Below, piece by piece: positions 24,495 to 59,921 of a DNA stretch of 64,000 nucleotides. The notes under the pieces were generated by a model. The model ran no database searches and had not been told where the DNA came from. It saw only the letters and a list, made by a program, of their open reading frames with translations. The translations under genes and the position numbers were made by a program. The stretch's first letter is position 1. Every line of letters starts with the position of its first letter. This DNA comes from an uncultured Thermoleophilia bacterium (GTDB lineage: Bacteria; Actinomycetota; Thermoleophilia; RBG-16-64-13): assembly GCA_963772095.1 (NCBI GenBank), contig CAVYVU010000017.1, positions 31,402 to 95,401 on the forward strand, read 5' to 3'.

Positions 24495-24646
24495 AGTGGA
24501 ACGGCCTCGACTCCGAGCGTGTCTCCTCAGAAGTGGAAGCCCCGGGAACAGTCAGATCGAAACCAAGACAGTTCACAATGTGAACCGCGCGGTGCGATTG
24601 TTGGAGCGAACATACACCGACTGTTCCGCTCAGACAACAGGCGCGG

Positions 24647-28121: not shown

Positions 28122-28133
28122 GCGTGTTTCGCC

Positions 28134-38838: not shown

Positions 38839-38848
38839 GAAGTCAGCC

Positions 38849-42571: not shown

Positions 42572-42612
42572 GAATCGCTCACAAGCGATGTCGCCCAACA
42601 AGCGATACGTCG

Positions 42613-42650
42613 AAACGCCGGCCTTCGGGCCGGCGTTTCTGTTCTCATCT
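42613..42650 (+). terminator. rho-independent terminator after the RRM gene
   Basis: perfect 11-bp stem AAACGCCGGCC / GGCCGGCGTTT with TTCG loop, followed by CTGTTCTCATCT. Confidence 0.65.
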
Positions 42651-42705
42651 ACCACGCTGCCGTCGCTGAACGTGACCGGCTAGCAACCCCGAGGAGACGG
42701 CCGGG

Positions 42706-44017
42706 TCAGTCGCCGAGGCTGGAGCGCAGGTCGATGACGCGCTGCAGCGAAGCCTTGAACGCCGATCTACTCAGGGTGCCGTTAGCGTAGCCGGTCTCCA
42801 GCCCGTCCATCGCTTGCTCGCCTTGGGTGACGTCGCGCGACGCGCAGAGGATGAGATCCATGCCGGCCCCGGCCGCCAGCAGGGCACGATGTTGGAATGT
42901 CCCGAACGCCTGCAGAGCTCCTGCCCCGAGTGAATCGGTGATCGTCACACCCTGGAAGTCGAAGCTGCTCGCGCAGTTGACCCTGGACGACGGTGGACGA
43001 CAGCCCGGCGGGCCGAGCGGCATCGAGCGCCGGGTACACGGCCCAGGACACCATGACCAGCCGGACCCCGGCGGAAATCGCGGCCTTGTACGGGAATTCG
43101 TCGATGGCTGCTCAGCGACTGCGCCGACACGTTCAGGGTGACCGGCCGCAAGTCTGTGTCCTGCGAACTGGTGGCCGCACCCAGGCCTGGAAAGTGCTTG
43201 GCGGTGGCCGCAACGCCAACCTGCCTGCTGCGCCGTGATGAAGTTCGCACCCAGCTTGGAGACGACGGTCTGGTCGCATGCTGTAGGAGCGTTCGTTCTT
43301 GTCGTCGAAGCCGCCCGCCTGGCGGTAGACATCGAGCACCGGGGCCAGGTTGACGTTCATGCCGAGGCCGCGCAGGTTGAGCCCGGCACCGTTGCCCGCC
43401 TCGGTCGCCGCGGCCGCGGGGTCAGCCGACTGGCCGATCTGCTTCTCGGAGAGCAGTGGCGCGCCCGACAGGTGGCGGATCTTCCCGCCCTCCTGGTCGG
43501 TCATCAGGAGCAGCGGGGCCTGCACCGGGTTCTGAGCGCTGGCGTTGGCTCTGCTTCAGCGTCTGGATGACCGCGCGGATCTGCGCGTCTGCTGGAGATG
43601 TTGTCGGCGAAGAAGATGACCCCGGCCGCCTCGCCGTGACTGATCAGCGAGAGCAGCGACGGCAGGTGGGGTGAGCCCGGTGTAGCTGTAGATCACCCGC
43701 TGGCCCGCCATCTGCCGCGCCGACAGCACAGGAAGTGTAGCGGGCGTTGTCGTGGGAAGTGTGGTGGGCGTCGTCGTCGGCGCCGTGGTGGACGTCGACG
43801 TTGAAGTGCTGGTGGATGCCGAAGTGCTCGTCGTAGGTAGCGAGGTGGTCGACGTTGATGTCGAGGTGGCAGTCGACGTCGCCGTGGTGGAAGACGTGGA
43901 CGTCGAAGTGGTCGTCGATGTCTGGACACCCGGACCCTGGCGCCCGCAGCCTCCCGCCAAAAGAACGGCCGACAAGATCACGCAGGCAACCACCGAGAGA
44001 GCAAAGGCGCGCTTCAA
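42706..44017 (-). pseudogene. glycoside hydrolase family 3 (beta-hexosaminidase/beta-glucosidase-like) lipoprotein with at least 3 frameshifts
   Basis: signal plus lipobox (LLAGGCG) and Ser/Thr-rich linker in ORF 43556..44017; GH3 motifs DQEGG, KHFPGLGA and C-terminal domain are spread over ORFs 43133..43525, 42945..43250 and 42706..43332. Confidence 0.7.
43740..43935. repeat. low-complexity GTCGACGTCGA(A/G)GTGG-type DNA repeats encoding the Ser/Thr-rich linker of the GH3 lipoprotein
   Basis: visible periodic repeats; the minus-strand translation gives TSTSTS...; mirror-image ORFs appear on both strands. Confidence 0.5.
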
Positions 44018-44227
44018 GGAGAGCCTCCTGGTCGAGAGCTTCGCGGGCCGGTCGTACGAATCAGCGTCGCCACCCGTCGACGTGCACGATCAGAGCGTCG
44101 TGCCCCTTCTCAACCTTTACCCACCACATCGTCATCGCAATACTGGATCTCAGCGCTGGAATAGATCGCCACTTTGGCGCCATCCCCATGCCTCTCCCCT
44201 AGGACCCGTAGCACGTCGTCCCACTTG

Positions 44228-45370
44228 TCAAGCATGAGCAACTCTTTCGCTCGGGGCAAAGAATCCCGCGGCGGTGAGGTCCTTGTACTCATTGAAGACA
44301 ATAAGCCGCTCCACATGCGGCGGCAGTTGAATCATCAACCTGAACTCATCAGAGCTGATGCTGCCCCAGTTTCCAAAGAGGTAGTGAGCCACGTGGCCTT
44401 CCGGGGCATTGCAAATCAGCACCACGTCCCCACCGGTGCTCTTGACGGACGGGAAGCCGGTGATGACCCCGCCTTCTCCCTCGTTCGCTTTCGCGAAAGT
44501 ATTGGTGACCACCACATCGCAGTCCCTGGCTCGAGGGGTCAGGTAGTGCCATCGGGCTTCCACCAAACCCTCGTTGAACGCGGTCTCAGGCTCCCCTGCG
44601 TAGACAGAGACGGTCTCCCCCCAGGTGTTGACGATCGCATCTATCTTGAAGTCGAGACCGACCATGTGAGCCGCTTCCTCGATATTCTGCCGCATGGGGT
44701 TGCCCTGAATGCAGCCCATACCACCAAGGTCCACACTCTTGCTGGCACCATCCTGCAGCTTCATGCGATGCATGGCCCCGACAGTCTCGAACGATGCGAT
44801 CCCCGGCAGGATGATCTTGGCTCCTCCGCCAAAGCCGGCGAACCCGTGAGGCACGATCGAACCGATAGCTATCTTGTAATCGCAGTTGACAACCTCGGCA
44901 TTGATGTACAAATCCGTACCGAAGCTCGTTGTCCCAACCAAGCTGCAGTTGCCGACGATGTTGTGATTGAAGACGGGGAACCGCGAAACTACCTCTTCCC
45001 CTAGCTTCTTGACGAAGTCCCTTCGGGTCAGAGCACCGTGGCAACCCAATGCGCAGACGAAACGGATCTGGTCGTCCCCAACCCCCGCTTTCGCTAACTC
45101 CTCCAGCACGTATGGAATCATCGGGGCTGCCCGAGTGGGGCGAGACATATCGTCAAAAATGATGGCTATTTCTTTCTTTCCTCTGGCGCCCACGCTGATC
45201 GGCGAAGTGCCGATGGGGTGAAGGATCGCGTCTTCGATACGCGTAGCCTCCAAAGCCGGCCGATCGTGGCCGGCCATATGGCACAGTTCCACCTGCCAAC
45301 TTTCAGGAAAGGCGACGTCGAGAAGCCCGGTCTCATACCAAGCGAGCTGTGGGAGGCTGACTCTCTTCAT
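44228..45370 (-). CDS. LarA-like protein (lactate racemase family, DUF2088), paralog 2
   Basis: 380-aa ORF with LarA N-terminal domain layout; second LarA homolog in the window. Confidence 0.65.
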   Translation of the reverse strand: MKRVSLPQLAWYETGLLDVAFPESWQVELCHMAGHDRPALEATRIEDAILHPIGTSPISVGARGKKEIAIIFDDMSRPTRAAPMIPYVLEELAKAGVGDDQIRFVCALGCHGALTRRDFVKKLGEEVVSRFPVFNHNIVGNCSLVGTTSFGTDLYINAEVVNCDYKIAIGSIVPHGFAGFGGGAKIILPGIASFETVGAMHRMKLQDGASKSVDLGGMGCIQGNPMRQNIEEAAHMVGLDFKIDAIVNTWGETVSVYAGEPETAFNEGLVEARWHYLTPRARDCDVVVTNTFAKANEGEGGVITGFPSVKSTGGDVVLICNAPEGHVAHYLFGNWGSISSDEFRLMIQLPPHVERLIVFNEYKDLTAAGFFAPSERVAHA

Positions 45371-45383
45371 GAACGGCTCCCCC

Positions 45384-45662
45384 TCATCCGCCTAGAGCAA
45401 ATGTCAGTAGCACAATATGGTCGTCGCTGTTGACCTGGATGTCGTAATCATCCACACAGAAACGACCGTTCACGTTGAAGGTGTAGTGGCCGGTAAGTTT
45501 GTCCTCGCCGGGCCTGATGATGCTCCCCTCTAATGTGGGCATCTCTCGCCTGAGCGCGGCGACAACCTCCCGGAGGCTGACGTCCCCCTCTAACTCGAAC
45601 TCCACGTTCTGTCGGCCGGCGAACTGATTGGACATCCCGAACAATTCCACGCAGTACTTCAT
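45384..45662 (-). CDS. MoaD/ThiS-family ubiquitin-like sulfur-carrier protein (92 aa, C-terminal GG)
   Basis: MKYCVELFGM...HIVLLTFALGG; its ATG overlaps the AOR stop codon in an ATGA; in the ORF track it appears fused to the AOR ORF only because the AOR frameshift puts both in the same frame. Confidence 0.7.
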   Translation of the reverse strand: MKYCVELFGMSNQFAGRQNVEFELEGDVSLREVVAALRREMPTLEGSIIRPGEDKLTGHYTFNVNGRFCVDDYDIQVNSDDHIVLLTFALGG

Positions 45663-47513
45663 GATGGCCAGAATTCCCTCGCCACGTCGTCCAGACCAAG
45701 CTCCAGAAGTTTCTTCTTGCTGGGCTTTGTCGTCTTGAGGTCCCAATCCATGGCCTCGAGAAACTCCCGGTTGATGGCATCTTGATCGATGGTCACCCCG
45801 GCGAGCGGACCGGCCTCCAAGGGCGGTTTCCCCACCAGCCTCCCAGAGACGACGTAGTCCAAGCGGATTCAGCCCTTCGCGGACGTTGAACGCCTGACGC
45901 ATGTTGGCGATTCGCTCTCCGGTCGTCAGCACTTCCTCAAGGGTCGCGTCCCACCCAGTGAGCGCATTCAAGAACTCGATCAGGACATCCACGTGGGGAT
46001 ACGTAGCGATGACGAACACACAGACCCCGAGGCTCTCTAGGGCATGATTGAAGACGTAATTGACCTTCTGGGCTTCGCCTCTGCCGCTAAATGCGCCAGG
46101 TTCGTAGGCGGGCACTGGAACGCCCGGCGGCACGAACCCGCCATGCCAACGCATATGCCGGGCGGGAGTGGCGTCCATTCTGTAACACGAGGCAAAGCCG
46201 TACTCGAACTTGGGGTTATGAGCAGGGGGTTCCTGCCCATGGATATGAATGGCATATTGTTCGGCACCCCGGCCGATCTTTTCAGCGGCGACCCTGACCC
46301 CGTCGGCCAGGATGTCGCCAAAGCCTTCCCTCTTGCCCAAGTTTTCGAGCATGGCGACGATCGACTCGTGGTTGCCCCACGTCATTTCGATGCCGCCGGT
46401 GTCCTCCTTGGTGATGACCCCGTTCTCGTAGCATTCGATCGCAAAAGCCATGACCGCACCGGCGGAGATCGTGTCCACCCCATAGCGGTTGCACACGTCG
46501 TTTGCCTTGATGATCGACTCGATATTGTCGTTGAGGCAGTTCGTCCCGAACATGCTGACGGTTTCGTACTCGGGCTTGTGGACGCCGTGTGAGTATTCGT
46601 ACTCGCCTGTGCTTTCCTTCATCAGCCCGCCACAGGCCACCACGCACCGGTGGCAACCGTACTTCCTCTGCACCCTCTCCATCACCGCGTCCACGCCGAT
46701 CTTCTCGACCCCCGGGAAGTCGATCTCTGTGACCCCGGACCAGTTCTTTACCGGGGTATCTCCGATCTTCGCAAAGGGCACGATGACGGCAACGGTGCCG
46801 AAGTTCTTGAACTCATCGATCAGCCCCACGAGTTTCCTCGCGTAGGTCTTTCGCAGTTCGGCCGCCCCCTCAGCGTCGAAGACCGGGACCGGCGTGCTGC
46901 CTTTGGCCACGATAGCTTTGAGCTTCTTGGAGCCCATCACGGCGCCAAGTCCGGAGCGCGCAGCCGCCCTGCCTTTGTCGGTCATGATCCCGGAAATGAG
47001 CGAAAGCTTCTCGCCCGCAGGGCCTATGCAGGCGATCTCGGCATCCTTGCCGAACTCGGCCTTGAGGATGTCCTCCGTATCGTGAGAGTCCTTACCCCAC
47101 ACATGTGCGGCGTCCCGGATCTCAGCAACTCCATCGACGATCGAAAGGTATACCGGTTTCGCAGACGCCCCGGTGAAGAAGACGGCGTCATAGCCGGCAT
47201 ACCGCAGGATCGGGCCGAAGTTACCTCCGGCGTTGGAATCGCCCCAACCACCGGTGAGGGGAGATTTCCCCACGACTGCAAACCTAGAGCCGCCGAGCGC
47301 GCTGGTTCCCGTGAACGTACCGGAAAGAAAGCCTAGTATGTTTTCCGGACCCAACGGGTCGACACCGGCTTTTAGGCGATCAAAGAGTACCTTGACCCCT
47401 AGGCCGTACCCGCCAAAATATTGCCGGTATAGTGCCTCGTCCAGGATTTCTTCATGCAGCGCACCCGTGGACAGGTCCACCCAGAGGATCTTGCCGCAAT
47501 ATCCGTTTGCCAT
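45659..47513 (-). CDS. aor: tungsten-type aldehyde:ferredoxin oxidoreductase (AOR family) with a single frameshift near 45865
   Basis: N-terminus MANGYCGKILWVDLSTG; pterin/4Fe-4S domain motifs; authentic C-terminus (GPLAGVTIDQDAINREFLEAMDWDLKT...LGLDDV) lies in ORF 45659..45862, a different frame from the main ORF. Confidence 0.8.
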
Positions 47514-47547
47514 GTCGCTCTCCGTGCCTTGCTACCAGTGACTGGGG

Positions 47548-48491
47548 TCAGGAACAGTTCTTCTCCTCTTGTATCTTGACCAGCGTCACCATCACCTCGT
47601 TGACGGGAGTCGGCACGCCCAGCCTCTTTCCTTCGCGCACGATGCTGCCGTTGATGGCGTCGATCTCGGTCCTTCGTCCTCTTTCCAGGTCCTGAAGCAT
47701 CGAGCACTTGGGCTTCGTGCCGGAATCGTGGAATTTCTGGATGGTCTTCAGCAAGCCCTGGATGGGATCTCCCGCCTGCGTCCAGCGCGATGCCCGCCGC
47801 CTTGGTGACCGCCAGACATTCCTCGGCCATCTTGATGAGTAGCTCTTTGGCGTGCGGATACGCGGCGTACTCGTCGTTGGTGAGCCTCATGGCGGTCCCC
47901 AGCGCCAGGGGGACGTTCTGCAGCACCTTGCCCCAGATGAGCTGCTGGACATTCGTCGAGACGACCACGTCCAGACCCGCTGCTCTGGAACGCATCCGCG
48001 ATCTCGTCCACCTCGGGCGAGACGACGCCGTTAGCCGGTCCGATCTTCAGCCCGCCGGTGCCGACCACCCAGCTCAGCCGATTGAGCTCCAGAGGAGTGA
48101 CCACGCACCAGAACACCCCGCCGATCACGTGGGAATCGTCCCCCAGCACGTCCACGATGTCTTCCACGTTCCCGGCACCGTTCTGGACCGAGAGCACCCA
48201 GGTGTGCGCCCCGATGATGCCTTGGCGCCGGCGATCGCCGCCGCGCGTGGCGTTCGACTTGACCGCGAGCACGACCAGGTCGGCGACGCCGACGGTTGCG
48301 ACGTCGTCGGTGATCTTCACCGCGGCCTGAAGGGTCCGGCCGTCGGACATGTCGATCCGGACGCCGCCGGCTTGAATGGCGCCGACGATATCCTTCCGGA
48401 GTTCCACCAAGGTGACGTCCTGCCGCTCGTCGGCCAGCAGCGCTCCCAGAAGGCTGCCGATGTTGCCCGCACCGATGATGGCTATCTTCAC
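47548..48491 (-). pseudogene. 2-dehydropantoate 2-reductase (PanE/ApbA) family 2-oxoacid reductase with at least 2 frameshifts
   Basis: N-terminal MKIAIIGAGNIGSLLG Rossmann region (47748..48491); ApbA C-terminal domain in ORFs 47399..47995 and 47548..47754 (KPSMLQDLERGRRTEIDAINGSIV). Confidence 0.7.
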
Positions 48492-48560
48492 TGCCTCTCC
48501 CCTACGAACGTCTTCAAGTTAGTTCCTTGCCCGAATTCCGGGCGGATACGTGGCGAACAA

Positions 48561-50225
48561 TCAGAAGGACGGGTCGACCACCACGTCGACCAGATTGGGA
48601 ACGCCTGAGCCCAGGGCCTTCTTCAGCGCGTTCCGAGGTCGGCCGGGTCGGTCACCTTCCGGGCAGCGATGCCCAGGCCTTCCGCGATCTTGCAGAAGTC
48701 GATCTCCGGCGGGGACAGCACCGTGCCCAGGTTCCGGCCCTTGACCTCGTCCCCCATCAGCTTCGTCTTCATGATCCGCACCTGGCGGTAGCAGGCGTTG
48801 GACAGGACGATGAAGGTGACGGGAATGTCGTAGTGAGAGGCATTCCACAGACTCTGGATGGACCACATGGCGCTGCCGTCGCCCGCGACGCAGACTACGG
48901 GCCTATCCGGCGAAGCCGAGTTTGGCGCCCAGGGCGGTCGGCAACCCGCCGCCGATGCTGCCCCCGCCTCGTGCGCGCTGATAGCTACGGAGTTCCTTGA
49001 ACGGGATGGTCCTTCTCAGTATGGCCGAGTACGACCAGCAATCATCCACGATCCTCGTGCCCGGTTCGATGGCATCGCTTATCTCAGCCATCAACCTGGT
49101 CCCGGAGATCGGAGTGTTGTCGCGCTCCGACAGCGATTTCTTCTCGAAAGCGTCGACCATCGCTTGCTTTTCGAGAGATATGGCTTTCACTCTCTCGGCG
49201 ACGCTTGAACGTGTGCTGGACGTCAGCATCTCCGCGAGAGCTTCCGTCAGGTCGTTCACAGCCACCTTGATATCGCCCTCGATGCCGCACGCTATCGGCA
49301 GGTTCTTGGCTATCTGCCACGGATTGTTGTCTATCTGGATGACCTTCGTGGAGGGCGGCACGAGGGACTTCGGCAGGTATATGGCCTGCTGGAAGAACAT
49401 GGATCCGATGACCACCAAGACGTCAACCGCTTCCAGGATGTCCCGGGTGGCCAGACTGTTGGGGTCCATGTCGCCGATGTACTGCGGATGGTGGACGGGG
49501 AAGTTGACGTCGCTCATCCACGGCTGATACACGCGGGCGCCGATCTGCTCGGCGAATCGGACCACTTCGTCCAGCGCCTCGCACTTCGTCACGCCGTCTT
49601 CGACGATGATCGCCGGGTTCTTGGCTGCGGAAAGCAGCTCCACGGCGGCCTCGATGGAGCGGTCATCCGGATGAAGTCTCGTATAGGAGTGGCAGCTGGG
49701 CGGATACTCGAAATCGAAGGTGTTGGCCAGCACGTCCCCGGGCAGCGACACCATGACCGGGCCCGTGGGCGGATGCGTCGCCACTTTGAACGCGCGGCGC
49801 ATGACGGTGGGCAGGTCTTCCGGGCGAATGACCTCGGTGGCCCACTTGGTGAAGGGACTGGCTATCTTGACCAGGTTGTCCGACATGGCGGCTTCTTCGG
49901 CCAGCAAGCGAGTGTCCTGCTGCCCCACGGTGACCACCAGGGGGACGCCGCCCCAGTAGGCGTTGGACAGCATCGGAAGACCGGCGGCCAGACCCGTGCC
50001 GGTGTGCAGATTGAGGACTCCCACCTTCCCCGAGGTGCGCGCATACCCTTCGGCCATACCCACCGCCGCGACCTCGTGCAGGCAGAGTATGTACTTTATC
50101 TCCGGATGGTCTTCCATGGCGTCGACGAACTGCACCTCAGTCGCTCCCGGAATACCGAACACATATTCCACGCCTTCATTGCGCAGAATCTGCATCACTG
50201 CTTCTTTACCCGTTACTCTGGACAT
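48561..50225 (-). pseudogene. thiamine-pyrophosphate-dependent enzyme (acetolactate synthase / benzoylformate decarboxylase family) with 2 frameshifts in the C-terminal TPP-binding domain
   Basis: 440-aa N-terminal and central domains intact (48903..50225); TPP-binding domain (GDxxxxN-type region NACYRQVRIM) in ORFs 48623..48868 and 48561..48866. Confidence 0.7.
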
Positions 50226-50436
50226 GTGTCGCGTCTCCTGTGTGGGTCAGTACTGCTACCTTGCCGCGGGATCGTCGCGGCGCACCCCTATTGGTCGGTT
50301 GCGCCGCTGTCAAAGGTGTTTGCCTCTCCCAGAATACCAATCAGCCGCGGCCGGCACGGGGCGGGTGTCGGCTGCGGCGCGCGGTAAGTCTTCGCAATGG
50401 ACCTCTTACCTGTCACGGGCAACAGGTCACAAGACC

Positions 50437-50511
50437 GGATAGGATCTGCACCTCGACTGGTCGCTACCGCTCTTCGAGGAAGATGTCCACCCCGAGGTGC
50501 AGATCCTATCC
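50437..50511. promoter_or_regulatory. perfect 19-bp inverted repeat (GGATAGGATCTGCACCTCG ... CGAGGTGCAGATCCTATCC) with a 37-nt spacer containing a nested TCTTC-GAG-GAAGA palindrome
   Basis: read directly from the sequence; lies in the 330-bp gap between the SBP gene 3' end and the TPP-enzyme gene start. Confidence 0.5.
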
Positions 50512-50556
50512 CTTTCCTTACTTCAGCTACTCAAGACCGAGTCGCACAGATCGACT

Positions 50557-52074
50557 TTACTTGAACGTGGTATCCGGCAGTATGATCGGCTTGGCTTGGT
50601 TGGTGAGCATGGGCGCATCGGTGTTCTCGACGATGAGCAGGTCGTATTGCCAGACCTTGGTGCTCCAAGGATTCTGCTTGGTGCCCTTGACCCACTGGCC
50701 CATCCACAGCGGGCTGAACACCACGTTCGGGTAGCAGCGCTGGCCCACGGTGGTGCCGCCGGTGTTTACCGCGGAGGTGAAGTCGATGGGGCCGACGATG
50801 GTGTCCATCTTGGTGGCGGCCACGTTCTTGATGATCTCGTTCTTGTCGTCCACGTTGGTGGTGCGCTTAAGCACATCGACGGCCCATTCGAAGAGCATGT
50901 AGTGCTCCTGGGGCTGGGTCCACTGCTGGCCGGTCTTTTTCTCGTAGTCGAGGCACAGGTCCGCGCAGCTCTCACCGGTGAGGGAGGACTTGAAGGGGTT
51001 GGTGGGATGCCACCAGCTGGTGCCGCACAGCCCGAAGCCGGTGGTGCCCAGGGCTTCCTGGGTGGTCGGGAAGAGGGTCTGGATGCCGACGTCGACCACC
51101 TTGGGAACCCAACCTTGCTGGTAGCACTGCTTCCAGAAGTTGGCCCAGTCCGGCGGGATCATGAGGCCGGTGATGAGTTCGCAGCCCTGCTTCTTAAACA
51201 GGCTGATGACCGTGGTCCAGTTCTCCATGCCCAGCTGGAAGGGGCCGGCATCGACCACGGTGAAACCGGCGGCCTTCATGGGGGGTTGGTAGAAGCTGCG
51301 GCGGTCGTTACCCTCTACGTCGTTGGGCCACAGGCAGCCGACCATCTTGTTGGTGGGCAGCGCGGGGTCGCCCAAGAGGGCCATGCTGCAGTCGACCAGG
51401 CCTTGGTTGTCCCAGAACACGAAGTAGGACCACTTGAACTGGGTGGTCTTGTTGCCGCCGCTACCGTTGATCCAGGAGTCCGCCGGGCTGTCGGTGAGGA
51501 CGCAGGGGCAGCCGAAGGCTTCCGCCTGCTGGCCGGCCGGGATGGTGGTGTCGGTGGTGGAGGCGGCCATGAGGATGTCGACTTTGTTACTGGTGATGAG
51601 GTTGGCGGCCACGGTACCGGCATAGTTGATATCGGACTGCGTATCCACCACGGTGATAGTCATGGGATGGGCTTTGCCGTCGGCGGTGAGCAGAGAGCCG
51701 GCCTTGGCGTATTCCTGCCAGCGGGTCGCCGCCCAGTTATCGGCGGTGCCGAACCCGGCCAGTCCGCCGGTCTTCGGGGTCATGAACCCGAACTTGATCT
51801 CGCGCCCGGTCTCCGGGGCGGAGCTCACTGTGGTGGTGCTGCCCGCGACCGCGCTCGTGGTGGTCTCGCCGGCGGTGGTGGCGGTGGTTGGCGCCGTGGT
51901 CGTGGTGGTGGTGCCGCCGCAGGCGGCCACCAGGCCGCCCAGGCCGGCTCCTACCCCGACCGTGGCTCCGGCGATCCCGGCGATCTTGAGGAACTCGCGG
52001 CGGCTGACCGCCTTGCGTTCCAAAGGACCCGGTCCTTCCTGCAGATCAGAGGTGTTTGGTTCCTTCTCCGACAT
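50557..52074 (-). CDS. ABC-transporter periplasmic substrate-binding lipoprotein with Tat signal (LivJ/amide-type PBP1 fold)
   Basis: RREFLKIAGIAGATVG twin-arginine motif; AACGG lipobox; Thr-rich linker; PBP type-1 body. Confidence 0.75.
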   Translation of the reverse strand: MSEKEPNTSDLQEGPGPLERKAVSRREFLKIAGIAGATVGVGAGLGGLVAACGGTTTTTTAPTTATTAGETTTSAVAGSTTTVSSAPETGREIKFGFMTPKTGGLAGFGTADNWAATRWQEYAKAGSLLTADGKAHPMTITVVDTQSDINYAGTVAANLITSNKVDILMAASTTDTTIPAGQQAEAFGCPCVLTDSPADSWINGSGGNKTTQFKWSYFVFWDNQGLVDCSMALLGDPALPTNKMVGCLWPNDVEGNDRRSFYQPPMKAAGFTVVDAGPFQLGMENWTTVISLFKKQGCELITGLMIPPDWANFWKQCYQQGWVPKVVDVGIQTLFPTTQEALGTTGFGLCGTSWWHPTNPFKSSLTGESCADLCLDYEKKTGQQWTQPQEHYMLFEWAVDVLKRTTNVDDKNEIIKNVAATKMDTIVGPIDFTSAVNTGGTTVGQRCYPNVVFSPLWMGQWVKGTKQNPWSTKVWQYDLLIVENTDAPMLTNQAKPIILPDTTFK

Positions 52075-52240
52075 GTCCCCTCCCTTTTAGCTCCGAGAAT
52101 AACGTCGCGCCCGCGTCATACCGCGGACTGACTTCGTCTGGCGCCGCCTCCATGCGGTTCCGGCAAAGCCGCGTCGCGGCTCCGGCCGCCAGGGTCCCTA
52201 CTGGCCTTATACCATTCATTGGGCAACCGGTCAATGAGAA

Positions 52241-52260
52241 TCTGTAATGTCCATTACAGA
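52241..52260. promoter_or_regulatory. perfect palindrome TCTGTAATG-TC-CATTACAGA in the AT-richer divergent region between the SBP and iclR genes (candidate IclR operator)
   Basis: 9-bp arms, 2-bp spacer, read directly from the sequence. Confidence 0.5.
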
Positions 52261-52433
52261 AATGTGGTTAATTGTTGTGGGAATGTGAAATCGCGCTCGG
52301 ATGGAACAATGATCGTGGATGGCCATTCGCTCAAATACAGCGCGATGCTAGACTTTGGGCGATGATCGACGCGAAGGTCCGCCCAGAACCGGCCTCTGGG
52401 CCGTCTTGCGAGCTGGTGCAGAGAGGATTCACA

Positions 52434-53273
52434 GTGGCGGCCACTAAGAAGAGCAAGCCAATAGAGGAACGTTCCGATGACCCTTCGATAGTGCGTTCCC
52501 TGTCCAGGGGGCTGATGCTTCTCGGCCTCTTCGATTCGGAACATCAGGAATTGACTCTGGACGAGCTGACCGAGCAAACCGGATTTCCCAGGATGACGGT
52601 CTGGCGCATGCTGAGAACTCTGGAGGCAGCCGACTACGTTGTCCGCGACCCGATCACGAGTCGATACCACCTTGGGCCCGCCATGCTGGTATCCACGTAC
52701 TTGACCTGGGGTTACGCGGCCGTCTTGCAGGCTGCCCGCCCGTATTTGGAGGCGCTCGCGCGGGAGACCGAGGAGCCTGTCACCCTGGCTGTCGAGATCG
52801 ACGGGGTCGCGGTGAGCGTAGATCGGGTGGACAGCTCTCGTTTCTTCCACAGAGAGGTGGCTCTCGGCAGGATAATCGGGGATACCGCGAACGCACATGG
52901 AAAAGTGTTCGCTGCCTTCAAAGCCGAGACGGACAGGGAGTTGATAATCAGTCGGCCACGCCCGCAATTGACTCCCAATACGATCACGGACGCCAAAGCC
53001 CTTCGACTGGAGCTCGAGCGCGTGGTGCGTGAAGGAGTCGCCTTCGATATCGAGGAGCGAAACATCGGCACCTGCGCCGTGGCGGCACCCGTCTTCAACC
53101 AGGTGGGGGCTGTCATGGCCACTATCGCAGTTCTGGTTCCAACCGGCCGCTTTGGCCCCGAAGAACGCCGCAAATGTGCCGAGGCGGTCCGTGCCACCGC
53201 CGCCTCTCTCTCCGCCTTCCTCGGGTACGCCTCGTCCAAGCCGACGGAACTGCCCAAAGCGAGCTCATCATGA
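52434..53273 (+). CDS. IclR-family transcriptional regulator
   Basis: HTH LTLDELTEQTGFPRMTVWRMLRTLE plus IclR effector domain; start refined to the in-frame GTG at 52434, preceded by a GAGAGGA SD (ORF-finder start 52272). Confidence 0.8.
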   Translation: MAATKKSKPIEERSDDPSIVRSLSRGLMLLGLFDSEHQELTLDELTEQTGFPRMTVWRMLRTLEAADYVVRDPITSRYHLGPAMLVSTYLTWGYAAVLQAARPYLEALARETEEPVTLAVEIDGVAVSVDRVDSSRFFHREVALGRIIGDTANAHGKVFAAFKAETDRELIISRPRPQLTPNTITDAKALRLELERVVREGVAFDIEERNIGTCAVAAPVFNQVGAVMATIAVLVPTGRFGPEERRKCAEAVRATAASLSAFLGYASSKPTELPKASSS

Positions 53274-53377: not shown

Positions 53378-54550
53378 CTACATAGACCGGCGGAGGATCT
53401 CAGCAGCATCCTCCTCATCAAGGTTTGCCAATGACGAGTCCATGCATGGCTTCATCGTGAGGAAAGCTTCTTGGGCTATGGTCTGGATCATGTCTTCGGT
53501 GACCCCGAGGCTGGATGCCGAGATGTCGAGGTCGACTTTCGCGAGAAAATCCTTGAGCGCCTCGGACGACTGCTCAGCCAGCTCGGTCTCTGTGAGGCCT
53601 TTTCCAGACCTCCCGAGCAACTGGGCGATCTTTGCGTAGCGAGCCGGATTGCTCGCGTATGTGTAACCAAGATACGCGGGTCCCAACGCCGCCATGGTCT
53701 TGCCGTGCACAGAGTCGGTGTGTCCCCCGATGCACTGGCCTATCGCGTGTATCGCGACGACGTTCGCGTTGTCGAATGCGAGCCCGGCAAGGGTGCTGGC
53801 CCACGCCATATTAGTTCTGGCTCCGAGGTTCGAGCCGTCGTGAAAGACGGCTTCAAGATTCGCGACCGTCAGCCGGATCGCTTCCTGACCCACTAAGTCG
53901 CTGAAGAGGTTGGCCCCCCTGGACAAGAACGCCTCCAGCGCGTGAAACAGCACATCGACCCCGGTTGTGGCGGTCACGTCTCCGGGCACCCCCAGCATTA
54001 AGTTGGGGTCGACGATGGACACAGTCGGATACAGACTCCTGTGGACGACGCCCGGCTTGTAGTGCCTCTGCGTGTCTGTGATGACCGCGATGCGCGTGAC
54101 TTCTGACCCTGTGCCGGCAGTGGTGGTGATGGTCACGATCGGGAGAGCGTCCCGAACCCCCACCGCCCACGGGTTCTTGCCGCCCGGCAGGTAGTCGAGG
54201 ACCGACGTGTCATTAGCAGCCGAGAAGGCGATCGCCTTCGCCGCGTCCATCGCGCTGCCGCCTCCCAGACCGACCACGAATGAGCAGTCTTCGTCACGGA
54301 CGACCTTGGCCAGTCGGTCGACATATTCCGCGCGGGGATTAGGCTCTACGCTTTCGTCGACCACCACTGCAACACCGGCTTTGCCCAGCAGATCCGTGAC
54401 CATGCCCAGGATGCCTGTTGCCCTCATGACGTCCGGATACGTTACAAGCAACGCTTTGGATCCGAGCCCGGAAACGGCTTCCGGCAGTCTCGCGACGGAA
54501 CCAGGGCCGAACACGACTCCGGTCGGCAGGCAGAAGTTGAACGGCTCCAT
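53378..54550 (-). CDS. iron-containing (group III) alcohol dehydrogenase
   Basis: GGGSAMDAAKAIA motif and Fe-ADH fold over 390 aa. Confidence 0.85.
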   Translation of the reverse strand: MEPFNFCLPTGVVFGPGSVARLPEAVSGLGSKALLVTYPDVMRATGILGMVTDLLGKAGVAVVVDESVEPNPRAEYVDRLAKVVRDEDCSFVVGLGGGSAMDAAKAIAFSAANDTSVLDYLPGGKNPWAVGVRDALPIVTITTTAGTGSEVTRIAVITDTQRHYKPGVVHRSLYPTVSIVDPNLMLGVPGDVTATTGVDVLFHALEAFLSRGANLFSDLVGQEAIRLTVANLEAVFHDGSNLGARTNMAWASTLAGLAFDNANVVAIHAIGQCIGGHTDSVHGKTMAALGPAYLGYTYASNPARYAKIAQLLGRSGKGLTETELAEQSSEALKDFLAKVDLDISASSLGVTEDMIQTIAQEAFLTMKPCMDSSLANLDEEDAAEILRRSM

Positions 54551-54667: not shown

Positions 54668-56785
54668 TCACTCCGTACCCGGAAGCCCGGTGTGCGGTTG
54701 ATAGACGGCCGAGGCGCCTTCTAAGGCGTCGTCGAGTATTTCCGCGATATCTCGAACGTTTAGCTGCCCCTCAAGTCCCTCGTGTTTTACGCCGTCGTCG
54801 AGCATGATCTTGCAGAAAGGGCAGGCGGTTCCCACCACCTGCGCGCCGGTAGCTGCCATCTCCCGGATGCGCAAGAACTCGATAGGCTCTCCAATCTTCA
54901 TCTCACTCCACATGCGGCCCCCTCCCCCGCCGCAGCAGAAGCCGTCGCGGCCGTGGCGCTGAGGCTCCCTCAAAGACGCGCCTGTCTCGGCGATCAGGTC
55001 GCGGGGCTGCTGATAGATGTCGTTGTAGCGCCCCAGGTAGCAGGAGTCGTGATACGCCACCGTCAGACCGACGGTCGGGGTGACCGGCAGGCGACCGCTC
55101 GACACCAGCTCGAGCAGTAGTTCGGAGTGATGTACCACCTTCCAGTCGGCACCGATCTGAGGGTAGTCGTTGCGGAAGGTGTTGTAGCAATGGGGGCATT
55201 GCGTGAGAATCGCGCGGAAGCGGTACTTGTCGATGGTCTCCTTCAAGGATGCCGCCCCCACTTGGAAGAGCATTTCCTCCCCCATCCGGCGCGCGGCCTC
55301 ACAGCTGCACGTTTCTTCCTCTCCCAGCACGGCGTAGGACACCCCCGCCCGGTCGAGCAGGCGCACGATCGCCCTGGTCACGTTCTGAGAACGCGGATCG
55401 TAGCTGCCCGCGCAGCCGACGAAAAAGAGATAGTCGACGGGTTCGGGCTCGGCGCCCCCGGACGCCTCCGCGTTGTCGGATGGTTTGCCGTCAATTTGGA
55501 TCTCCGCAAGCACGGGTACGTCTAGGCCCAGCCCTTCGGTCCAAGCCATGCGGTCTTTCTGCTTCAACTGCCACGGGTTGCCCCGCATGCCCATGGACTC
55601 GAGGGCCTTGGCCGCGCTGCCGCTCAGGCGGCCTTCGTTGGTGAGGTGACGCCGGATCTCGAGCACCTTGTCGAGCTGGTTGATGGCCACCGGACAGTGC
55701 TCCACACAACTTCTGCAAGTGGTGCAACTCCAGATCTCGTCGTCTCCGATAACGTCCAGCAGGTCGGGGATATCACCCTGCGCGTGAAACCCAGGGAGCA
55801 GGCGGCGGGTTGCTTCGGCGGTCTTCTGCTGCAGGACTTGCCGGCTTTTCAGAACGATCGTCTTGGGATTCAAGGGCTTGCCGGAAGCTGTAGCCGGACA
55901 GACCTCTTCGCAACGGCCGCAGTGTGTGCAGGCATCGAGATCCTCGAGATCGGGCCAAGAGTAGGCGGTGATCGTCCCCACGCCCAGGCTCTCGACCTCC
56001 TCGATGTCCGGGACAAAGGTCATCGAACCCTTCAGGCGCCGGTCGCGCAGGAAGACATTGGCCGGAGCAGTGAAGACGTGCAAGAACTTCGTGAAGCCGA
56101 GCACTCCCACGAAGCCCAGAGTAACCAGCATGTGGAAGATCCAGAGGTACCGGTAGAACGTGCTGACGCCACCCACGCTGGCTATGTTCGCGAGGCCTTT
56201 GCCAAGTCCGTAGCCCACGAAGCTGGCGACCCTCTCATAATGGGGGAAACCAGCCACGTAGATCCGGGCGCCTTCGAGAAGGAAGCCCGTGATCCCGATC
56301 ACGAACAGCAGGATCAGGGGATAGTGGTCGTACCAGCTGCGCTCGAGCTTAGCCGGCCTGCTGATGTAGCGACGCACGGCGGCCAGGATGACACCGATAA
56401 GGAGCGCCAACCCGCCGATCTCCATGATGAAGCTGAACCCAAGATAGAAGCGGCCCATGAAGAAGTGCAGGCCAAAGTCGATGGCGAAGATGAGGATGAT
56501 GGTCCCGATGAGCAGGACCGTGAAGCCCCAGAAGATCGAAAGGTGCATGACCCCCGCGTAACGATCCTCAAGGATGGCCTTCTGCAGAAGACCGTTCATC
56601 ACGAAGTCCCACGCACGCCTCGCCATGTGATCCGTGCGTGTGGTCGGTGCCGGCTGCGCCTTCCTGTACATCCACACCCGGCGGGCAAGGTACCCTATGA
56701 GCGAGAGGACCGCGACCGCGGCTCCCGCGTACATGACGACCTCCGCCCACAGGGGCACGTTCCATAGGAGCTCTCGGGTCTCCAC
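54668..56785 (-). CDS. EtfD-like membrane-bound Fe-S oxidoreductase (DUF224/CCG-domain, HdrD/GlpC-like) predicted to couple Etf to the quinone pool
   Basis: N-terminal roughly 270-aa multi-TM domain; two ferredoxin motifs CTHCGRCEEVCP and CTTCRSCVEHCP; two CCG cysteine-rich domains (FVGCAGSYD, GFCCGGGGG); immediately downstream of etfBA. Confidence 0.75.
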   Translation of the reverse strand: METRELLWNVPLWAEVVMYAGAAVAVLSLIGYLARRVWMYRKAQPAPTTRTDHMARRAWDFVMNGLLQKAILEDRYAGVMHLSIFWGFTVLLIGTIILIFAIDFGLHFFMGRFYLGFSFIMEIGGLALLIGVILAAVRRYISRPAKLERSWYDHYPLILLFVIGITGFLLEGARIYVAGFPHYERVASFVGYGLGKGLANIASVGGVSTFYRYLWIFHMLVTLGFVGVLGFTKFLHVFTAPANVFLRDRRLKGSMTFVPDIEEVESLGVGTITAYSWPDLEDLDACTHCGRCEEVCPATASGKPLNPKTIVLKSRQVLQQKTAEATRRLLPGFHAQGDIPDLLDVIGDDEIWSCTTCRSCVEHCPVAINQLDKVLEIRRHLTNEGRLSGSAAKALESMGMRGNPWQLKQKDRMAWTEGLGLDVPVLAEIQIDGKPSDNAEASGGAEPEPVDYLFFVGCAGSYDPRSQNVTRAIVRLLDRAGVSYAVLGEEETCSCEAARRMGEEMLFQVGAASLKETIDKYRFRAILTQCPHCYNTFRNDYPQIGADWKVVHHSELLLELVSSGRLPVTPTVGLTVAYHDSCYLGRYNDIYQQPRDLIAETGASLREPQRHGRDGFCCGGGGGRMWSEMKIGEPIEFLRIREMAATGAQVVGTACPFCKIMLDDGVKHEGLEGQLNVRDIAEILDDALEGASAVYQPHTGLPGTE

Positions 56786-56794
56786 TCCGCCGTC

Positions 56795-57850
56795 CTAAGA
56801 TGAGGCCTTGCGCCGACGGATCTCCTCAGTGAGGGCGGGCACCACCGTATGCAGGTCCCCTACCAGGCCGAAGTCGGCGAAGGAGAAGATAGGGGCGTCC
56901 GGATCCTTGTTGATGGCCACGATGTAGTCCGAGGTCTGCATGCCTGCCCGGTGCTGGATGGACCCGGAGATGCCACAGGCGATGTAGAGCTTGGGCGAGA
57001 CGGTCTTGCCGGTCTGCCCCACCTGGAACTGATGGGGTCTCCATCCGGAGTCCACAGCCGCCCGGCTGGCCCCGACCGCCGCGCCGAGCTCGTCGGCAAG
57101 CGCCTGGATGATTCCGAAGCCCTCGGCACCGCCAAGGCCACGGCCGCCGGATACTATGATCGCAGCCTCCTCGAGACTGACGATGCCCGTGTTCTCGCAA
57201 ACCACGTCCACGACCGTCACAACCAGTCCACCGGGCCTGAAGTCGATCGGCAGCGGTATCACCTCAGGGCTTGCCGCTGCCTCCTCGCGGGCGAACATGT
57301 TCGACCGCACCGTCGCAAGCGCCGGCGTGGACACGGCTTCCTTCTCGACGATCACGCCTCCCCCAAAACAGGGATGGCTGGCTATCAGACGGCCGTCCGC
57401 AGCTTCCAGACCTGTGACATCCGCCAGAAGACCCACGCCCAAACGCGTGGCACAGGCGGAAGCCATGTCCCGGCCTTCCGTGGAGCCCGAGAAAAGGACC
57501 AACGCGGGAGCAGCGGCCGCGATAGCTGCCATCGCCCCGTCGGTGAAGGGACCGGGTCGAAAGACCGCGAGCTCCGGGCTCTCGACCACATAGACTCGCT
57601 CGGCACCGTAGCGGGCGGCCGCGGCCACAAATGGCCCAGCCTCAGTCGTCATGATCACCACGCTTACGGGGCCGCCTATCGTTCCGGCAAGGGCGCGAGC
57701 CCGCGTGATGCTCTCCAACGTGACATTGGCGAGTTTCCCTTGCCTGGGCTCGGCTACAACAAGGATGCCACTTTCATTACTCACGGATCTATCTCCCATA
57801 CCACGTCGGTCTCCAGTCGGGCACGAAACGGGCGTGTTGTGTTCGCTCAC
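56795..57850 (-). CDS. etfA: electron transfer flavoprotein alpha subunit
   Basis: ILVVAEP... FAD-binding C-terminal domain (YIACGISGSIQHRAGM); likely true start is the GTG near 57784 after a GGAGAT SD. Confidence 0.85.
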   Translation of the reverse strand: MSEHNTPVSCPTGDRRGMGDRSVSNESGILVVAEPRQGKLANVTLESITRARALAGTIGGPVSVVIMTTEAGPFVAAAARYGAERVYVVESPELAVFRPGPFTDGAMAAIAAAAPALVLFSGSTEGRDMASACATRLGVGLLADVTGLEAADGRLIASHPCFGGGVIVEKEAVSTPALATVRSNMFAREEAAASPEVIPLPIDFRPGGLVVTVVDVVCENTGIVSLEEAAIIVSGGRGLGGAEGFGIIQALADELGAAVGASRAAVDSGWRPHQFQVGQTGKTVSPKLYIACGISGSIQHRAGMQTSDYIVAINKDPDAPIFSFADFGLVGDLHTVVPALTEEIRRRKASS

Positions 57851-57856
57851 ACACCG

Positions 57857-58633
57857 CTAGATGAGCTTCTCGCTCGCCAAGAAATCGGCGATCCGCTGGG
57901 CGCCGTCACCGTCGTCCTCAACCTTCACTCCCGCCTTCCGCGGCTCGGGTGAACGGCCGGAGAGAACACGGGTCTTCGCACCAGTCAGTCCAACCTGCGC
58001 TGCGTCCAGTCCCAGAGCGGCTGCGTCTCTTACCTCTAGGGGCTTTTTCTTCGCGCTCATGATGCCTTTCATCGACGGGTAACGAGGCTCGTTAATGCCC
58101 TTCACGACGGAAAGAACGGCAGGCGCGGGGCACTCGTAGACGACGTAGCCCTCTTCTGTCTCGCGATGGACGGCAAGGATGGAGTCGCGGACTTCCACTT
58201 TCGACAAAGAGGAGAGCAAAGGCAGGCCAAGCCGGTCGGCCACAGCCGCGGGCACACAGCCCGTCTCACCGTCCGTGGACCGCATTCCAAAAAGTACGAG
58301 GTCATGGTCGAAAGTCTTGAGCGCCTCCGCCAGGACGTAGGCCGTACTCTGCAAATCCGAGCCGGCTAAAGCATCGTCGCTGACCATCAATGCGCGGTCG
58401 GCACCCATGGCCAGGGCTTTGAGCACAGCCTCGGTGGCCGTCTCCGGCCCCATGCACAGCACGGTGACCTCGCCACCATGAGACTCCCTCAGGCGCAACG
58501 CTTCCTCCACCGCGTACTCGTCGTACGGGTTGAGGATGCAGTCCACGCTACGATCCAGACGCCAAGACACGGGGTCGAGTCTCTTCTCGGCCTCTGTGTC
58601 AACCACCTGCTTCACGCATACCGCGATATTCAC
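57857..58633 (-). CDS. etfB: electron transfer flavoprotein beta subunit
   Basis: MNIAVCVKQVVDTEAEKRLD canonical EtfB N-terminus; GTG start with GGAAGGGAAGG SD. Confidence 0.9.
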   Translation of the reverse strand: MNIAVCVKQVVDTEAEKRLDPVSWRLDRSVDCILNPYDEYAVEEALRLRESHGGEVTVLCMGPETATEAVLKALAMGADRALMVSDDALAGSDLQSTAYVLAEALKTFDHDLVLFGMRSTDGETGCVPAAVADRLGLPLLSSLSKVEVRDSILAVHRETEEGYVVYECPAPAVLSVVKGINEPRYPSMKGIMSAKKKPLEVRDAAALGLDAAQVGLTGAKTRVLSGRSPEPRKAGVKVEDDGDGAQRIADFLASEKLI

Positions 58634-58690
58634 TGGCCTTCCCTTCCTTCACAAGGCGACCTCCGACCGTGCCGCACCTTGAGGCCGGCC

Positions 58691-58780
58691 GCTACATCAT
58701 AATCCGGCAGAGCCGTTGGGCCATCTCTTCTACGTAACTTTTCATGGCTGCGGCAAAGTATTACGATGACGTATAGATGG
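58691..58780. promoter_or_regulatory. left copy of a roughly 90-bp duplicated element in the divergent etfB/lysR promoter region; includes the dyad TACG-N4-CGTA (T-N11-A) and the lysR ATG
   Basis: reverse complement aligns to 59726..59815 with about 81 percent identity overall and about 91 percent over the first 58 bp. Confidence 0.6.
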
Positions 58781-59676: not shown

Positions 59677-59725
59677 GACTTCAGCGCGGCCTGCCACGCT
59701 AGCTTGCTCGCCGATGCCTCCTTCT

Positions 59726-59815
59726 CATCTATACGTCGTCGTAATACTTTGCGCCCGCCATGAAAAGTTGCGTCGAATAGCGGGCCTCGCCTCTCTGTCG
59801 GATTATCATGTAGCG
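59726..59815. promoter_or_regulatory. right (inverted) copy of the roughly 90-bp element, 107 bp upstream of the acyl-CoA dehydrogenase gene
   Basis: CATCTATACGTCGTCGTAATACTTTGCGCCCGCCATGAAAAGTT... matches the reverse complement of 58691..58780; dyad preserved as TACG-TCGT-CGTA. Confidence 0.6.
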
Positions 59816-59921
59816 AACCCAAGCTCCGGGCACCGCGCGTGGCGTGAGAAAAGGGAGCCGGCGGCGGTTCCGGGGGTCGACATGAGCGGCATACGAATGG
59901 GCATGAGCAGGAGGTGCACCT

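Follow-up and report, generated by a model that had tools for sequence, protein, structure and literature searches.

What would an actinobacterium do with a lactate racemase (LarA) homolog, a PanE/ApbA-family oxidoreductase, a thiamine diphosphate (ThDP) enzyme, and an aldehyde:ferredoxin oxidoreductase (AOR) encoded in one run of genes, and is such a run still of use to its owner when several of the reading frames are broken? This question is raised by a stretch of 64,000 nucleotides from an uncultured Thermoleophilia bacterium (assembly GCA_963772095.1, contig CAVYVU010000017.1, positions 31,402 to 95,401; G+C ∼63%), hereafter called the window. An earlier note, made from the letters of the sequence, had described these genes, together with one for a MoaD-like protein, as a series on the minus strand, with a binding protein and a divergent IclR-family regulator encoded upstream. 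The list of open reading frames (ORFs) and searches against Pfam, NCBIfam, and the Protein Data Bank (PDB), applied to the region between 44.1 and 53.3 kb, confirmed every gene named there as well as their order (Table 1). The cluster is a real, conserved operon of soil Actinomycetota.

The function toward which we lean, with somewhat more confidence than doubt, is catabolic: induced by its substrate, in a Thermoleophilia-like actinomycete of anaerobic or microaerobic habit, the operon would convert an imported 2-hydroxy (or 2-oxo) acid to the carboxylate shorter by one carbon. The acid would be bound outside the cell by the Tat-exported lipoprotein, and its L and D forms would be interconverted by the LarA homolog (Lar). 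The D form would be oxidized to the 2-oxo acid by the PanE/ApbA-family dehydrogenase (ApbA), the 2-oxo acid decarboxylated to the aldehyde by the ThDP enzyme, which resembles benzoylformate decarboxylase (BFDC), and the aldehyde oxidized to the acid by a tungsten AOR, whereby ferredoxin would be reduced. The MoaD-like protein would aid the maturation of the pterin cofactor of AOR, and the IclR regulator would work at a palindrome beside the promoter. The data show the identities of the genes, the retention of catalytic and cofactor residues, the conservation of the cluster, and the recurring linkage of its parts; each enzymatic step, the flux direction, and the substrate are predictions from sequence. 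As substrate, a 2-hydroxy acid of aromatic or otherwise hydrophobic character is probable, with three weak hints in its favor: the resemblance of the ThDP enzyme to BFDC, that of the regulator to PcaR/PobR, and neighbor genes of the AthL-like and Amidohydro_2 types in a relative (locus L002) and in a clade of ∼50% identity.

Recurrence of the cluster and exchange of its parts

Genomes were scanned with the Lar subfamily, which resulted in 80 loci, and metagenomes with the ThDP family, which resulted in 81 distinct loci, of which only 45 have at least 1.5 kb of downstream sequence. The neighborhood is conserved in related genomes, and the ThDP enzyme scores closer to BFDC than to acetolactate synthases (see below), so the idea withstands both checks by which the earlier note would have had it refuted. 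In a Thermoleophilia metagenome-assembled genome (MAG; L045, ∼90% identity), the reading frames of which were not checked, the full cluster is syntenic, including the genes for the binding protein, the IclR regulator, and an iron-containing alcohol dehydrogenase (Fe-ADH). In an Actinomycetota MAG (L002/L006, 72–81% identity), the module is intact in the order ThDP-ApbA-AOR-Lar-MoaD and is preceded (in L002) by AthL-like, Amidohydro_2, Lactamase_B, and HGD-D genes. Two further contigs, both intact, carry AOR'-MoaD-Lar-GH3-RRM-LigD (L003) and ApbA-AOR-MoaD-Lar (L004).

Among the 81 metagenome loci, AOR lies directly downstream of the ThDP gene in 18 and after ApbA in one more (19 in total), a LarA homolog adjoins the ThDP gene in nine, ApbA is present in five, and uptake genes for carboxylates, of the TRAP, Tct, or Liv type, are frequent. 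Some of the LarA homologs represent a second subfamily (32–43% identity), which comes after the ThDP gene in L103-L106, L125, and L128. Three loci show how the parts are exchanged. In L085, DctQ/DctM TRAP genes and an OYE-like gene are followed by ApbA-ThDP-Lar, without AOR; in L169, two NAD-type aldehyde dehydrogenases stand at the place of AOR, together with an AsnC regulator, ThDP-ApbA-Lar, and DctPQM; and in L087, TctCBA is followed by the ThDP gene and a D-isomer 2-hydroxyacid dehydrogenase (2-Hacid_dh) in place of ApbA. Such an exchange of AOR for aldehyde dehydrogenase and of ApbA for 2-Hacid_dh would be expected if the ThDP enzyme forms an aldehyde from a 2-oxo acid that itself derives from a 2-hydroxy acid. 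The sequence of 2-hydroxy acid, 2-oxo acid, aldehyde, and acid that the earlier note had proposed is therefore supported by gene linkage elsewhere, that is, by the ThDP-AOR pairs, the ApbA-ThDP-Lar clusters with TRAP genes, and the two exchanges; the label "mandelate-like" that it had attached to the route survives as an analogy only (see below).

An AOR of 36–39% identity, divergent from and adjoining Lar, was found in 12 of 77 mostly Dehalococcoidia loci. In L168 (10723–12713), the ThDP gene, the last 140 residues of AOR, Lar, and MoaD are present, while ApbA and most of AOR have been deleted; this locus is a naturally decayed module, and the loss occurred by deletion. A different recurrent operon, consisting of genes for an AthL-like protein, a Fer4_11 subunit, an Amidohydro_2 protein, a 219-aa protein, the ThDP enzyme, and AOR, characterizes the ∼50%-identity clade.

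The Lar subfamily is very common in Dehalococcoidia (which account for most of L007-L084), where some loci contain two tandem Lar paralogs, and frequent neighbors there are EtfAB/FixCX-like proteins, an OYE-like reductase, IorA, a PAS histidine kinase, and an HD-GYP response regulator. A conserved protein of 218–240 aa, without a Pfam match, is encoded directly 5′ of the ThDP gene in 13 loci of the ∼50%-identity clade (L127-L153); the 219-aa protein encoded 5′ of ThDP-AOR pairs had zero Pfam matches. AthL-like genes are located 5′ of the L002 cluster and in the Amidohydro_2/ThDP/AOR operon of L131, L132, L140, and L143, and the window itself contains such a gene in pieces (61138–63600, plus strand), encoding an AthL-like molybdopterin enzyme that resembles pyrogallol hydroxytransferase.

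Enzyme families and predicted activities

The ThDP enzyme clearly contains the TPP_enzyme_N and M domains, to which the C domain could be added after correction of the reading frame. The protein scores closer to BFDC than to acetolactate synthases, both in the PDB (239 versus 187 bits) and in NCBIfam, where the BFDC model NF005485 was the best (368.9 bits at a cutoff of 493; acetolactate synthase, 293); its second-best relative in the PDB is BbmA. The GDG...N motif for Mg-ThDP and the activating glutamate are kept (Glu51, Asp449, and Asn476 are conserved), and His70 of BFDC is retained as His74. Its residue pattern, together with the family-specific invariant residues Trp397 and Gln481, marks the enzyme as a member of a BFDC-like family without a characterized member. 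This family is common in MAGs of Chloroflexota, Deltaproteobacteria, Methylomirabilis, and Acidobacteria.

Lar matched the Lar_N domain with 185.8 bits. The catalytic residues His108 and His174 of LarA correspond to His111 and His175 of Lar and are invariant in 31 members of the subfamily; the residues engaging the cofactor, a nickel-pincer nucleotide (NPN), that is, Arg75, Lys184 (the covalent tether), and His200 (a nickel ligand), correspond to Arg77, Lys185, and His201 and are invariant in the subfamily alignment (residue roles according to PMC11770544). A shared fold, the two catalytic histidines, and the NPN-holding lysine, histidine, and arginine are common to the LarA superfamily, which comprises LAR, MAR, HGR, GntE, and HHR (PMC11770544), but the Lar of the window fits none of these characterized groups. 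It scored below all five matched NCBIfam LarAH equivalog models (LarA, two for MAR, LarAH10, and LarAH14/15/16), for example, 214 versus a cutoff of 500 for MAR/LarAH6, 191 versus 540 for LarAH10, 180 versus 460 for LarA, and 173 versus 462 for LarAH5. The fold was read from the AlphaFold model of a 91%-identical homolog (P0002; pLDDT 84), which matches the LarA structures 5HUQ, 6C1W, and 9EIA with TM scores of 0.72–0.80 (0.76–0.80 with 5HUQ chain B, 6C1W, and 9EIA); according to this model, Lar has the two-domain LarA fold. The divergence of the C-terminal domain is too great for it to be aligned by sequence, and the positions matching Trp358 and Thr359, which determine specificity in LarA, were not located in alignments and profiles that end near residue 326–340.

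A second LarA homolog is encoded in the window at 18825–20339 (minus strand). It contains Lar_N and LarA_C and is nearest to true lactate racemase (254 bits at a cutoff of 460). The adjoining ORF (20222–21268, minus strand) encodes an EamA-family transporter, and both ORFs overlap by ∼118 nt.

For ApbA, the ApbA and ApbA_C domains were matched on fragments (78 and 26 bits, respectively), and the corrected protein passed the family model TIGR00745 (215 bits, cutoff 141). When the sequence is read by eye, WGK..N and RRTEID can be recognized as motifs. The PanE family includes D-mandelate and D-2-hydroxyisocaproate dehydrogenases (bioRxiv 10.1101/2024.01.05.573888). Such D-2-hydroxyacid dehydrogenases, like that for D-mandelate from Enterococcus or PanE from Lactococcus, act on bulky 2-oxo/2-hydroxy acids (bioRxiv 10.1101/2024.01.05.573888) and belong to the same family as the window protein, with ApbA and ApbA_C domains and TIGR00745 passed.

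AOR contains AFOR_N (253 bits) and AFOR_C (309 bits) and could be aligned over its full length to 9mqx and to 1aor, the AOR from Pyrococcus. Compared with 1aor, the CxxCxxxC motif and the distal cysteine of the [4Fe-4S] cluster, PEYE/Glu313, and His448 are all kept. The enzyme scored higher with the AORs 9mqx (371 bits) and 1aor (329 bits) than with FOR (239), WOR5 (204), and BamB (195), which places it nearer to AOR proper, and because the cluster lacks genes resembling those for AorA or AorC, it is considered the single-subunit type. Its predicted metal is tungsten and its predicted acceptor ferredoxin; the cluster contains no ferredoxin gene. The ATG of the MoaD-like gene overlaps the stop codon of AOR (ATGA), as had been described before, and the protein ends with GG. 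Its matches to profile models are weak and below cutoff (ThiS, 18.9 versus 22.5; moaD_arch, 27 versus 49.5; SAMP1, 29 versus 60). Orthologs in L002, L003, L004, L045, and L168 occur only alongside AOR or an AOR remnant, which fits a role in pterin cofactor maturation, the function the MoaD-like protein probably serves for AOR. In the AOR operon of Aromatoleum, aorD and aorE are MoaD-like genes for which such a role has been proposed (PMC6365974). The MoaD-like gene sits after Lar in L002 and L168, and the protein was also considered as sulfur donor for the NPN cofactor of Lar; this was rejected as the main interpretation, its gene being absent from the AOR-less ApbA-ThDP-Lar clusters L085 and L169 but found wherever there is AOR or an AOR remnant.

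Several observations weigh against the proposed sequence of reactions. In the ThDP enzyme, Ser26 of BFDC is replaced by Ala28, which is invariant in the subfamily, and His281 by Ala281, a position occupied by glycine, alanine, or proline across the family. As two of the three catalytic residues of BFDC are absent and the score stays below the BFDC equivalog cutoff, the resemblance to mandelate catabolism is an analogy only, and decarboxylation by this enzyme remains a prediction. In Lar, the residues corresponding to the carboxylate-binding Gln295 and Lys298 of LarA are Glu297 and Gly300; an invariant lysine of the subfamily is located four residues before this region. The corrected ApbA protein missed all equivalog cutoffs for 2-dehydropantoate reductase (the best being 184 versus 500 and 176 versus 252), and among solved structures, ketopantoate reductases from archaea and bacteria (143 bits) come closest to it, ahead of D-mandelate dehydrogenase (3wfi, 68 bits). 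In the scanned parts of the window, no genes were seen for larB, larC, larE, ferredoxin, a tungstate transporter, or the permease and ATPase of an ABC transporter. Finally, two Actinomycetota loci with Lar of 72–76% identity (L001 and L005) lack the cluster, and its complete five-gene form was found in two lineages only.

The mandelate pathway of Pseudomonas putida consists of the racemase MdlA, the FMN-dependent dehydrogenase MdlB, the benzoylformate decarboxylase MdlC, and the benzaldehyde dehydrogenase MdlD. It follows the same four-step logic (racemization, oxidation, ThDP-dependent decarboxylation, and oxidation of the aldehyde), and MdlC is the closest-scoring solved structure for the ThDP enzyme of the window. 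However, the window would employ a LarA-type in place of an enolase-superfamily racemase, a PanE-type NAD(P) enzyme in place of the FMN-dependent dehydrogenase, and a tungsten AOR in place of the NAD(P) aldehyde dehydrogenase, and its ThDP enzyme, unlike MdlC, has neither Ser26 nor His281 and remains under the equivalog cutoff. During anaerobic phenylalanine degradation in Aromatoleum aromaticum EbN1, the aldehyde released by a ThDP decarboxylase is oxidized by either a tungsten AOR or an NAD aldehyde dehydrogenase, as is likewise proposed here, and this interchange is mirrored by L169. The aorABCDE operon of EbN1 combines AOR with the MoaD-like aorD and aorE (PMC6365974), and in the window a MoaD-like gene likewise adjoins AOR. 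In contrast to the EbN1 enzyme, the AOR of the window is a single-subunit, "archaeal-type" one without AorA/AorC partners (best matches, 9mqx and 1aor), and whereas EbN1 uses a phenylpyruvate decarboxylase, the decarboxylase predicted here is BFDC-like and shares one operon with AOR, the racemase, and the hydroxyacid dehydrogenase. The logic of the pathway is thus known, but its racemase, dehydrogenase, and aldehyde-oxidizing parts stem from other families, and none of the enzymes scores as a substrate-level equivalog of a characterized one. A literature search for this gene combination found no paper describing it.

The majority of LarA homologs and of bacterial AORs have, to our knowledge, not been assigned a physiological role. 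In the cluster, a LarA subfamily and a BFDC-like ThDP family, both uncharacterized, are joined with a single-subunit AOR in one operon that also encodes a protein for uptake and a regulator, and the parts of the cluster are exchanged elsewhere for enzymes of known function (aldehyde dehydrogenase for AOR, 2-Hacid_dh for ApbA); it thereby opens a route to assigning substrates for three enzyme families at once and might represent a ferredoxin-yielding alternative to 2-oxoacid:ferredoxin oxidoreductases in anoxic soils. One may speculate further, though the chance of this being correct is rather low, that the operon places a new LarA subfamily and a new ThDP decarboxylase family, for the first time, in a defined physiological context, within a modular anaerobic route widespread in soil and sediment Actinomycetota, Chloroflexota, and other phyla. 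In it, aromatic 2-hydroxy acids (of the mandelate or aryl-lactate type, possibly polyphenolic) would be converted via the aldehyde to acids of the (hydroxy)benzoate type with the use of a tungsten AOR; in some lineages, these acids would be passed on to Amidohydro_2 decarboxylases and to AthL-like transhydroxylases of the pyrogallol/phloroglucinol type.

Broken reading frames and rival explanations

Frameshifts had been noticed before in three genes of the cluster; three-frame translation and tblastn with orthologs revealed that four are affected, those for the ThDP enzyme, ApbA, AOR, and Lar. The DNA was aligned to two intact close relatives, L003 and L004 (∼87% DNA identity), to map the indels. 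The ThDP gene has a 1-nt insertion at ∼48917 and a 1-nt deletion at ∼48635; ApbA has 1-nt insertions at two sites, 47987 and 47779, and in addition an insertion and a deletion that compensate each other, at 48243/48221 (mapped versus L004); and AOR and Lar have one 1-nt insertion each, at ∼45861 and ∼44244, respectively. This single break is the reason why the Lar ORF of the window comprises 380 aa, compared with 412–435 aa in its homologs; the coding region extends to ∼44110 and does not end at 44228, as had been assumed. When the eight indels were removed, all five frames were free of internal stops (554, 313, 617, 92, and 419 aa), and dN/dS of the corrected proteins versus their orthologs was 0.075–0.14. 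Between 42.6 and 48.9 kb, ∼20 single-base indels were counted, of which 16 are 1-nt insertions at non-repeat sites. Just 3′ of the cluster, a GH3 (NagZ-like) lipoprotein gene (42706–44017, minus strand) carries at least seven single-base insertions and is split into approximately five ORFs, whereas it is unbroken in L003 (332 aa). Other split genes in the window are those for an M24 peptidase/creatinase (23267–24551), PGM/PMM (26466–28800), the AthL-like molybdenum enzyme (61138–63600), and the C-terminus of a GH94 protein (6192–7300). ORFs of 2.8–7.7 kb located between these patches are unbroken. Related MAGs have names of the form "MFD...bin" and contigs named "contig_".

These breaks most likely represent patchy errors of the assembly consensus and not gene decay, so the operon is probably functional in the organism. 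Of the two possibilities that the earlier note had left side by side, mis-assembly is thus favored by the indel pattern, the intact relatives, the restored frames, and dN/dS, whereas inactivity is unlikely. Genuine mutations in a pathway that no longer works would account for six frame-breaking indels and one compensating pair across four adjacent genes; the public protein record for the contig (P0001) does hold the truncated Lar of 380 aa, and real decay is known from L168, which by deletion has lost ApbA together with the N-terminal 476 residues of AOR. Nevertheless, true pseudogenization is very unlikely. Only indels are found, the corrected frames contain no internal stops, and dN/dS is low (0.08–0.14). 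Bacterial gene decay is biased toward deletions, but here 16 of ∼20 single-base events are insertions at non-repeat sites. Moreover, the same patch riddles the unrelated GH3 gene, similar breaks recur elsewhere (in the genes for the M24 peptidase, PGM/PMM, the AthL-like enzyme, and the GH94 C-terminus) with intact ORFs of 2.8–7.7 kb between them, and of the intact relatives, L003 is a megahit contig with a k-mer name and L004 a JGI contig. Patches of insertion errors on this contig thus create false pseudogenes, one of which, the truncated Lar, is already public.

Two other explanations were weighed. ThDP enzymes can cleave cyclic 1,2-diones to aldehydes, as does cyclohexane-1,2-dione hydrolase, and the ThDP enzyme of the window might, in the same fashion, cleave or ligate C–C bonds of a polyphenol-derived diketone or quinone; AOR would then oxidize the omega-aldehyde, and ApbA and Lar would form a side branch. 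The absence of Ser26 and His281 of BFDC and the presence of its own invariant Trp397 and Gln481 agree with such an activity, as do the operon of AthL-like, Fer4_11, Amidohydro_2, 219-aa, ThDP, and AOR genes recurring in the ∼50%-identity clade, the AthL-like and Amidohydro_2 genes upstream of the L002 cluster, and the fragmented AthL-like gene of the window (61138–63600). We regard diketone cleavage as improbable all the same because in the clade of the window, in L085, and in L169 the partners are dehydrogenases of the hydroxyacid type, a racemase homolog, and carboxylate transporters, which fits a 2-oxo acid, and because an AthL-like gene is missing from L085, L087, and L169, while that of the window lies at a distance of 11 kb. 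The remaining explanation, a reductive or biosynthetic module in which AOR would reduce an acid to the aldehyde at the expense of reduced ferredoxin, the PanE-type enzyme a 2-oxo acid to the D-2-hydroxy acid, and Lar would racemize the latter, or else housekeeping genes that are neighbors by chance, can hardly be considered probable. Non-oxidative decarboxylation by ThDP enzymes is effectively irreversible, so a reductive chain cannot connect through this step, and the binding protein, the TRAP and Tct uptake systems, and regulators of the IclR or AsnC type are typical of catabolism. It is true that AORs can reduce acids (PMC6365974) and that PanE-family enzymes normally act as reductases (bioRxiv 10.1101/2024.01.05.573888). 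Adjacency by chance is excluded by the repeated, re-shuffled linkage of these genes across phyla.

Layout, regulation, and neighboring genes

Table 1. Features of the cluster region (window coordinates; coding features are listed in the 5′ to 3′ direction of their strand).
Feature	Coordinates	Strand	Basis and remarks
Peripla_BP_6 substrate-binding lipoprotein, Liv type	52074..50557	-	Pfam; ORF unbroken
ThDP enzyme, BFDC-like subfamily, predicted 2-oxoacid decarboxylase	50225..48564	-	TPP_enzyme_N, M, C; corrected 554 aa
PanE/ApbA-family NAD(P) oxidoreductase, predicted D-2-hydroxyacid dehydrogenase	48491..47551	-	ApbA, ApbA_C; corrected 313 aa
Single-subunit AOR, AOR clade	47513..45659	-	AFOR_N, AFOR_C; corrected 617 aa
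MoaD/ThiS-like beta-grasp protein, 92 aa	45662..45384	-	Weak ThiS, MoaD, SAMP1 matches
LarA-superfamily protein, predicted NPN-dependent 2-hydroxyacid racemase	45370..44110	-	Lar_N; corrected 419 aa
IclR-family regulator ORF	52272..53273	+	HTH_IclR, IclR_C; likely start ATG 52362
Candidate operator, perfect 9-2-9 palindrome	52241..52260		Sequence; core kept in L045
Promoter-like TTGACC-17 nt-TATAAG	52206..52234	-	Read from sequence; points into binding-protein gene
Iron-containing alcohol dehydrogenase, neighbor	54550..53378	-	Fe-ADH, ADH_Fe_C domains
Dense single-base indel patch	42597..48917		Comparison with intact L003, L004, L002

The translation of the binding-protein gene contains a twin-arginine motif (SRREFLK), a lipobox (LVAAC), and a threonine-rich linker; Pfam assigned it to Peripla_BP_6 (98 bits), with weak matches to TAT_signal. 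The binding protein of an ABC transporter that had been proposed for this position is thus present, but no genes for an ABC permease or ATPase were seen adjoining it. A copy of 79% identity is encoded 5′ of the ThDP gene in L045, a partial match of 40% is found at this place in L088, and Liv-type binding proteins also come after ThDP-AOR pairs in L130, L131, and L147. Searching the PDB resulted in a sole match (E = 3e-5 over 110 residues) and in no useful structural homolog.

Both the divergent IclR gene and the perfect palindrome upstream that had been described are present. The IclR ORF opens with TTG at 52272, ATG at 52362 being the likelier real start; the top NCBIfam model for its product is PcaR/PcaU/PobR, with a score under the cutoff of this model, and a gene of 91% identity occupies the same position in L045. 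The palindrome, TCTGTAATG-TC-CATTACAGA, occurs a single time in the window, where 0 occurrences are expected by chance, and its core, TGTAAT-N4-ATTACA, is kept at the equivalent site in L045. Six nucleotides downstream of it, on the minus strand, begins the promoter-like sequence TTGACC-17-TATAAG, which has the same hexamers and spacing in L045. A stricter scan for consensus promoters did not report this site because the last base of its −10 hexamer is G. The IclR protein probably acts at the palindrome beside this promoter.

The Fe-ADH gene is syntenic only in the closest relative, L045, and lies outside the recurrent module; its product is only possibly an accessory for an aldehyde/alcohol side reaction. 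Farther away, genes for a membrane FeS/CCG oxidoreductase (NarI-like, Fer4, and CCG domains), EtfA, and EtfB are located on the minus strand (54668–58648), followed by plus-strand genes for a LysR regulator and an acyl-CoA dehydrogenase (up to 61145). The region 54668–61145 looks like a separate Etf-linked unit for acyl-CoA oxidation. EtfAB and the FeS/CCG oxidoreductase were considered as an electron outlet for the module; they were dismissed since they adjoin the acyl-CoA dehydrogenase and LysR genes and are not conserved with the module.

On the other side of the cluster, a putative Ku ORF (37966–38838) is followed by one for a putative LigD of 945 aa (37966–41686 for both, plus strand); both are unbroken, and their identities are taken from the translations alone. 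Near the beginning of the window, a minus-strand ORF of 2557 codons (7282–14955) encodes a protein with GH94 supersandwich, GH94 catalytic, and glucoamylase-like domains, which resembles cyclic β-1,2-glucan synthase/phosphorylase.

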